Shown here one piece after another: positions 11,620 to 12,944 of a stretch of 64,000 bases of DNA. The position numbers and the translations under genes are program-made. The stretch is taken from NCBI RefSeq assembly GCF_000026545.1, contig NC_011601.1; one strand, given 5' to 3'. The notes beneath the pieces were generated by a model, which was not told where the DNA came from, searched no databases, and saw nothing but the letters and a program-made list of their open reading frames with translations. This DNA comes from Escherichia coli O127:H6 str. E2348/69 (GTDB taxonomy: Bacteria; Pseudomonadota; Gammaproteobacteria; Enterobacterales; Enterobacteriaceae). Each line of letters starts with the position of its first letter. The stretch's first letter is position 1.

Positions 11620-12944
11620 ATGGAAAACGCTAAAATGAATTCGCTCATCGCCCAGTATCCGTTGGTAGAGGATCTGGTTGCTCTTAAAGAAACCACCTGG
11701 TTTAATCCTGGCACGACCTCATTGGCAGAAGGTTTACCTTATGTTGGCCTGACCGAACAGGATGTTCAGGACGCCCATGCGCGCCTGTCTCGTTTTGCGC
11801 CGTATCTGGCAAAAGCATTTCCTGAAACGGCTGCCGCGGGGGGGATTATTGAATCAGAACTGGTTGCTATTCCTGCTATGCAAAAACGGCTGGAAAAGGA
11901 ATATCAACAACCGATCAGCGGGCAACTGTTACTGAAAAAAGATAGCCATTTGCCTATTTCCGGCTCCATAAAAGCACGCGGCGGGATTTATGAAGTCCTG
12001 GCACATGCAGAAAAACTGGCTCTGGAAGCGGGGTTGCTGACGCTTGAAGATGACTACAGCAAACTGCTTTCCCCGGAGTTTAAACAGTTCTTTAGCCAAT
12101 ACAGTATTGCTGTGGGATCAACCGGAAATCTGGGGTTATCAATTGGTATTATGAGCGCCCGCATCGGCTTTAAAGTAACGGTGCATATGTCTGCTGATGC
12201 CCGCGCCTGGAAAAAAGCGAAACTGCGCAGTCATGGCGTTACTGTCGTGGAATACGAGCAAGATTATGGTGTTGCCGTCGAGGAAGGACGTAAAGCCGCG
12301 CAGTCTGACCCGAACTGTTTCTTTATTGATGACGAAAATTCCCGCACGTTGTTCCTTGGATATTCCGTCGCAGGCCAGCGTCTTAAGGCGCAATTTGCTC
12401 AGCAAGGTCGCATCGTCGATGCTGATAACCCTCTGTTTGTCTATCTGCCGTGTGGTGTTGGCGGTGGTCCTGGTGGCGTCGCATTCGGACTTAAACTGGC
12501 GTTTGGCGATCATGTTCACTGCTTTTTTGCCGAACCAACACACTCCCCGTGTATGTTATTAGGCGTCCATACCGGATTACACGATCAGATTTCTGTTCAG
12601 GATATTGGCATCGACAACCTTACCGCTGCCGATGGCCTTGCAGTTGGTCGCGCATCGGGCTTTGTCGGGCGGGCAATGGAGCGTCTGCTGGATGGCTTCT
12701 ATACCCTTAGCGATCAAACCATGTATGACATGCTTGGCTGGCGCAGGAAGAAGGCATTCGTCTTGAACCTTCGGCACTGGCGGGTATGGCGGGGCCTCAG
12801 CGCGTGTGCGCATCAGTAAGTTATCAACAGATGCACGGTTTCAGCGCCGAACAACTGCGTAATGCCACTCATCTGGTGTGGGCGACGGGAGGTGGAATGG
12901 TGCCGGAAGAAGAGATGAATCAATATCTGGCAAAAGGCCGTTAA
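11620..12944 (+). pseudogene. dsdA: D-serine dehydratase with frameshift near codon 374 (4-bp deletion)
   Basis: Frame reads ...MYDMLGW then nonsense to TAA 12817..12819; the frame starting at 12741 encodes [22 protein letters not shown]...NQYLAKGR to TAA 12942..12944. Confidence 0.8.

Follow-up and report, generated by a model that had tools for sequence, protein, structure and literature searches.

Loss of one TGGC repeat unit frameshifts dsdA in Escherichia coli O127:H6 E2348/69, probably as a second hit on a gene already silenced by the csc sucrose genes

The D-serine ammonia-lyase gene dsdA of E. coli O127:H6 str. E2348/69 has lost one unit of a short tandem repeat, and its last 68 codons no longer lie in the reading frame of the gene. 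The lesion is real, this allele has been seen in E2348/69 sequence only, and the product lacks conserved positions at the C-terminal end of the DsdA profile. We consider it very likely that dsdA is a recent loss-of-function pseudogene in this strain and that the loss of a TGGC unit was a second hit on a gene already silenced when csc sucrose genes replaced its neighbors. The overall interpretation given in the original prediction is supported, with two refinements: the change is best written as (TGGC)3 to (TGGC)2, and the frameshift is probably redundant with the earlier loss of the rest of the D-serine locus.

The window that we analyzed is a stretch of 64,000 nucleotides of contig NC_011601.1 (hereafter the 64-kb window), in which dsdA comprises the following features.

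11620..12944 (+): dsdA pseudogene, full extent, 1325 bp as against 1329 bp in intact alleles
11620..12741 (+): native dsdA frame, DsdA codons 1-374 (tblastn with K-12 DsdA, 99.2% identity)
12735..12742 (+): deletion site with the two remaining TGGC units (alignments and junction probes)
12742..12819 (+): out-of-frame tail of 25 nonsense codons and the stop codon TAA at 12817..12819 (ORF list and translation)
12741..12944 (+): orphaned -1 frame, DsdA A376-R442 and the native stop codon TAA at 12942..12944 (tblastn and TIGR02035)

The open reading frame that starts at 11620 encodes a 399-aa product and, as predicted, reads normally before turning into nonsense that runs to 12819, a result confirmed by both the ORF list and the translation. 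The frame that begins at 12741 ends in NQYLAKGR followed by the native stop. A tblastn search of the window placed K-12 DsdA residues 374-442 in frame 3 at 12735..12944 with 98.6% identity, which bears out the proposal that this frame is the clean continuation of the protein; K-12 DsdA is therefore matched across two frames, and the displaced segment, originally put at ~68 codons, is L375-R442. An indel whose length is not divisible by three, a premature stop and homology that continues in another frame are the marks of a frameshift pseudogene, and all three are present here.

The nearest intact allele is that of the csc-positive strain A25 (NZ_CP028750.1; 1329 bp, 442 aa, WP_000426395.1). Re-insertion of GGCT after 12739 renders the dsdA of the window identical base for base to that of A25, so the two alleles differ by 4 bp only, and the deletion corresponds to one unit of a short repeat as had been proposed. 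The junction in intact dsdA is CTTGGCTGGCTGGCGCAGG, exactly the sequence predicted for the undamaged gene. Written in the TGGC register, intact dsdA reads CT-TGGC-TGGC-TGGC-GCAGG and the window CT-TGGC-TGGC-GCAGG, or (TGGC)3 versus (TGGC)2. The repeat spans codons 372-376 and the frame shifts after W374; where in the repeat the missing 4 bp are placed is arbitrary, GGCT and TGGC being one unit in two registers. Over ~8 kb, from the csc block to the middle of emrY, A25 and E2348/69 differ by only 4 substitutions and the 4-bp indel, and the orphaned C-terminal frame matches the A25 allele without a single substitution and shows no secondary damage, indicating that the event is recent. A perfect tandem repeat shortened by one unit is a classic signature of replication slippage, and we infer that the TGGC unit was most likely lost through slipped-strand mispairing during replication.

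Consequences for the protein were examined with TIGR02035 (NCBIfam; PRK02991), a curated equivalog model for D-serine ammonia-lyase with 431 positions and a cut-off of 368.25 bits. The truncated product matches positions 1-368 at 710.7 bits, which is above the cut-off, the orphaned 67-aa frame matches positions 369-431 at 83.6 bits, and the repaired protein, which is that of A25, matches positions 1-431 at 812.3 bits. The model thus runs on to position 431 rather than ending near residue 374, as it might have done had homologs naturally stopped where the frame breaks. No single frame of E2348/69 dsdA covers the model from 1 to 431; by its sequence the gene is a member of the DsdA family by descent, but not an intact one.

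The A25 DsdA is 100% covered by the structure of E. coli DsdA, PDB 3SS7. The part retained in E2348/69 holds the PLP lysine K118 (SGSIKARG) and the glycine-rich phosphate loop GVGGGPGG. The lost segment holds EPS386ALAGMAG, in which DsdA residues 384-393 align with EPSGALALAG of IlvA, and the C-terminal motif WAT424GGG also lies beyond the frameshift. [quoted passage not shown] By analogy with StDCyD Thr315, T424 of DsdA may act on the pyridine-N1 side of PLP, and we predict that the 399-aa product is enzymatically inactive.

Occurrence of the deletion was assessed with a 46-nt junction probe that shares no 28-mer with an intact allele on either flank. The probe matched four of 5426 complete E. 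coli genomes, namely three E2348/69-derived assemblies and O55:H7 strain USDA5905, and the corresponding repaired probe matched ~5,200 of them. The three E2348/69-derived assemblies (CP059840.2, LT827011.1, and LT903847.1) were separately made, and window positions 5620..18944 are base for base identical to NZ_CP059840.2 1538141-1551465 on the reverse strand. The exact 399-aa product is also encoded on at least 24 independently assembled contigs (NCBI, ENA, Logan); those that were fetched are 100% identical to the DNA of the window over up to 7.2 kb. With all of the fetched contigs identical to the window, the allele has so far been seen only in sequence that may all be of E2348/69. A genome search found one dsdA locus in E2348/69; a second copy elsewhere was considered and rejected, there being a single matching place in the genome.

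These data leave next to no credence for the idea that the real dsdA is intact and that sequencing or assembly produced the 4-bp gap. Short repeats are liable to miscalling, but Illumina and Sanger reads are not prone to error at a tetranucleotide repeat of two or three units, and we regard the deletion as no sequencing error because the three separate assemblies and the contigs built from independent public read sets all carry it. Given that the deletion is real, a full-length or functional enzyme might still be made through programmed -1 frameshifting, through transcriptional slippage or as an active truncated protein. In favor of this reading, the downstream frame is undamaged and shares 12729..12816 with the upstream one. 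However, no X_XXY_YYZ slippery heptamer occurs in any phase of the overlap, nor does a homopolymer of six or more, and we rejected programmed frameshifting and transcriptional slippage for want of a signal in this interval. Moreover, the gene is in frame in the ~5,200 genomes matched by the repaired probe, so the frameshift is no conserved feature; the downstream frame, with zero other substitutions relative to A25, can have been kept simply by recency; and wild-type EPEC does not grow on D-serine (PMC4366372). Continued production of a functional enzyme is accordingly regarded as highly improbable, and we retain the reading of dsdA as a pseudogene.

The lesion lies in a locus that had been remodeled by sucrose genes, as the following features show.

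6270..11154: csc sucrose block in place of dsdC and the 5' 1.1 kb of dsdX (NZ_CP059840.2 annotation)
6270..7517 (-): cscB, intact per PGAP
7579..8502 (-): cscK, intact per PGAP
8718..10151 (+): cscA, intact per PGAP
10159..11154 (-): cscR, intact per PGAP
11384..11602 (+): 3' remnant of dsdX, DsdX residues 374-445, the last 72 codons (tblastn and blastn; PGAP "incomplete; missing N-terminus")
13052..14590 (-): emrY, the conserved right-hand neighbor of dsdA

Homology to the K-12 dsd locus breaks off at window position 5830, on the torI/attR side, and resumes at 11385 (blastn and tblastn). No ortholog of dsdC is present in the 64-kb window, where the only DsdC-like matches are the LysR paralogs xapR and yfeR at 27-42% identity. 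The absence of dsdC and the reduction of dsdX to a remnant had both been predicted correctly, and the full dsdCXA set for D-serine utilization is missing: dsdC is gone, DsdX is a remnant, and dsdA is frameshifted. An identical csc/dsdX junction occurs in 2654 of the 5426 complete genomes, of which ~49% are csc-positive. Replacement of dsdCX by csc at the argW hotspot is known from earlier work (Jahreis 2002; Moritz and Welch 2006, both as cited in PMC4366372).

Several neighboring features of the window were recorded alongside. Positions 1-5830 hold early genes of a lambdoid or P22-like prophage (cIII, kil, a Rad52-family recombinase, HNH, ssb, anti-RecBCD, and torI) which adjoin csc at the attachment site argW. 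In strain A25 the csc-dsdA block is the same but no prophage lies beside it, argW and yfdC taking its place. The xanthosine regulator gene xapR (52496-53394, -) is annotated as frameshifted by PGAP and adds a second regulatory pseudogene to the window, and fryB, which encodes a fructose-like PTS IIB component (40325-40651, -), is annotated as a pseudogene with an internal stop.

The product of dsdC is an activator. Because csc had replaced dsdC and most of dsdX together with the promoter, dsdA of E2348/69 was probably already transcriptionally silent before the frameshift arose. A sigma-70 consensus scan upstream of 11620 returned no dsdA promoter, a result to be read with the caveat that promoters which depend on an activator may depart from the consensus. 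With D-serine as the only carbon source, wild-type EPEC fails to grow, and plasmid-borne dsdA restores growth (PMC4366372, Fig. 2a); dsdCX is missing from all B2 EPEC (Connolly et al., PMC4366372). Published work ascribes the D-serine-negative phenotype of E2348/69 to this loss of dsdCX. The phenotype does not need the frameshift because EHEC with an intact dsdA shows the same one; loss of dsdCX by itself explains the published phenotype equally well, and the frameshift is probably a second, redundant hit rather than its cause. Among the papers searched, none names both E2348/69 and dsdA, and the D-serine literature that we consulted, including PMC4366372 and PMC7486766, makes no mention of a dsdA frameshift.

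We propose that the csc genes would first have replaced dsdC and most of dsdX with the promoter, leaving dsdA silent, and that one of the three TGGC units would then have been lost from codons 372-376, shifting the frame after W374. The resulting 399-aa product would lack the last 68 residues of a fold-type II PLP enzyme and would carry 25 junk residues instead. Such a frameshift would have been tolerated in a gene that is presumably under little or no selection in the csc background, in keeping with neutral decay. Together, the csc replacement and the frameshift would leave E2348/69 unable to degrade D-serine.

Other strains carry lesions at the same place. The allele of USDA5905 (O55:H7, 4905-6229), found with the junction probe, is the O157:H7 dsdA allele minus the same 4 bp; it differs from that of the window by 54 substitutions, the nearest of which is ~20 bp from the junction, and its product is encoded on 16 further contigs. 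Four contigs (L018-L021) carry a dsdA with the 4-bp loss at 3001-4325, and L018, which is among the 16 just mentioned, has 17 further dsdA substitutions relative to USDA5905 and 118 over 7.2 kb. Because the 4-bp loss sits on unrelated dsdA alleles, we count at least three independent events of this kind at the TGGC repeat, that of E2348/69 included, a count which follows from allele comparison. The opposite change, (TGGC)4, is found in WP3-W18-CRE-03 (NZ_AP021963.1, 2900-4232, 1333 bp), where the gene is flagged as frameshifted and lies in a csc-positive background. Off-length TGGC tracts occur in five of the 5426 complete genomes. In further csc-positive strains the W374 codon inside the repeat is a stop codon, either TAG (contigs L025 and L027) or TGA (L026 and L028). 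The TGA form is present in 4 complete genomes; a probe for the TAG form matched none of the 5426 complete genomes, and this form is known from draft assemblies only.

Two observations on individual assemblies may be added. In L018 the native dsdA stop codon, at ~4323, has changed from TAA to TCA, perhaps as further decay beyond the frameshift. In several draft assemblies, one of them dsdCXA-positive, contigs break off precisely within the GGCTGGC repeat (e.g., the end of L029, at 3623), giving rise to "partial" DsdA entries of 374-376 aa (P0011, P0013, and P0014). Such contig ends could mark an insertion or the edge of a dsdCXA duplication.

Alleles of dsdA recombine between csc and dsdCXA backgrounds, because the csc-linked allele of L025 is, apart from its stop codon, the dsdCXA-linked dsdA of K-12, and because dsdA diverges more than the csc genes do. 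Between E2348/69 and USDA5905, dsdA differs by 4.1% and the csc genes by 1.0-1.3% (cscA 1.3%, cscR 1.0%). In the same comparison (window 8718-15753), divergence is 4.5% in the cscR-dsdX spacer, 1.8% in emrY, and 2.7% in emrK. This unevenness indicates a recombination mosaic in which the csc block would be younger than the dsdA alleles that adjoin it. The dN/dS among dsdA alleles, which together with the intact dsdA of most csc-positive genomes would speak against neutrality, is 0.02-0.06, a value confounded by this recombination and so uninformative on whether selection still acts on dsdA in csc-positive strains.

The recurrence of lesions at one site raises the questions of whether the repeat is a switch and whether its breakage is selected. 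Alleles of two, three and four units exist in nature and the 4-bp loss has arisen repeatedly, as might be seen if the TGGC repeat were a reversible phase-variation (contingency) switch for dsdA. However, high switching rates at simple-sequence contingency loci need tracts far longer than three units, and neither a long tract nor frequent length variation within a lineage is seen at dsdA: off-length tracts are as rare as noted above, and all E2348/69-derived assemblies and contigs are in the two-unit state. An ON state would, moreover, still lack dsdC-dependent expression in this strain. We therefore think a switch very unlikely and regard the indels as fitting a slippage-prone repeat.

Positive selection for lesions that inactivate dsdA around codon 374 in csc- or LEE-positive strains, as opposed to neutral decay, is better worth weighing but still unlikely. 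Several independent lesions fall on codons 372-376 (the 4-bp loss at least three times, the 4-bp gain once, and both W374 stops), every repeat or W374 lesion with a known genomic context lies in a csc-positive background, and Connolly et al. make the case that dsdCX is selected against in LEE carriers (PMC4366372). On the other hand, ascertainment is biased towards the probed site and towards products of similar length, which were what we examined, and a tandem repeat is a sufficient mutational explanation for the indels. Since about half of complete genomes (~49%) are csc-positive, the finding of all 4-5 events in that background is weak evidence, and an enrichment of repeat lesions there was rejected as not significant. 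Most csc-positive genomes, O157:H7 included, also keep dsdA intact. The clustering of lesions at codons 372-376 is suggestive, and we make no claim of selection. It is unlikely, and somewhat less to be expected than selection in the general form above, that the TGGC repeat and W374 are a preferred inactivation point used recurrently under selection in csc-positive, often LEE-positive, E. coli. If this were true, E2348/69 would be one instance of a parallel loss, selected either against residual D-serine catabolism or for a product of ~374 residues. We favor neutral decay of a silenced gene and, beyond a practical caveat for D-serine work, regard E2348/69 dsdA as an ordinary strain-specific pseudogene.

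As a signal from the host, D-serine helps to determine the niches open to pathogenic E. coli. E2348/69, the prototype EPEC, is the reference EPEC strain in D-serine studies, and its broken dsdA matters wherever D-serine catabolism is to be restored or evolved.

At the level of annotation the dsdA lesion is already known: in all three E2348/69-derived assemblies RefSeq/PGAP flags "D-serine ammonia-lyase, frameshifted", as H4J01_RS07605 (NZ_CP059840.2), BQ9544_RS14060, and BQ9550_RS11490. The PGAP entry and our analysis concern the same feature at the same coordinates, but the annotation carries no details of the lesion; beyond it, we define the change as (TGGC)3 to (TGGC)2, date it as recent and set it in its population context. 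With simple-sequence contingency loci dsdA shares a unit-length indel in a perfect tetranucleotide repeat, with both contraction and expansion across strains, whereas it differs from them in having three units only, rare off-length alleles and no sign of switching within a strain. The W374 stops and the (TGGC)4 allele resemble the E2348/69 lesion in that DsdA is cut or shifted at residues 374 to 376 in a csc-positive background, but the mutations differ, as do the dsdA alleles that carry them, and the events are hence independent.

The closest parallel is EHEC O157:H7 (EDL933 and TUV93-0), which has the same layout of cscB-cscK, cscA, cscR, a 72-codon dsdX remnant, dsdA and emrY and, like E2348/69, does not grow on D-serine. 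In EHEC, dsdA is silent but functional (O'Boyle 2020, PMC7486766), and deletions that remove cscR put the cscA promoter next to dsdA, which leads to its reactivation and to D-serine tolerance (PMC7486766). Thus the EHEC gene is intact and can be reactivated by upstream deletions, whereas that of E2348/69 is frameshifted as well as cut off from its regulator. Reactivation of the EHEC type, in which an upstream deletion places dsdA under the cscA promoter, would be blocked in E2348/69 unless the repeat regains a unit, and the same should hold for removal of cscR or for provision of dsdC and dsdX.
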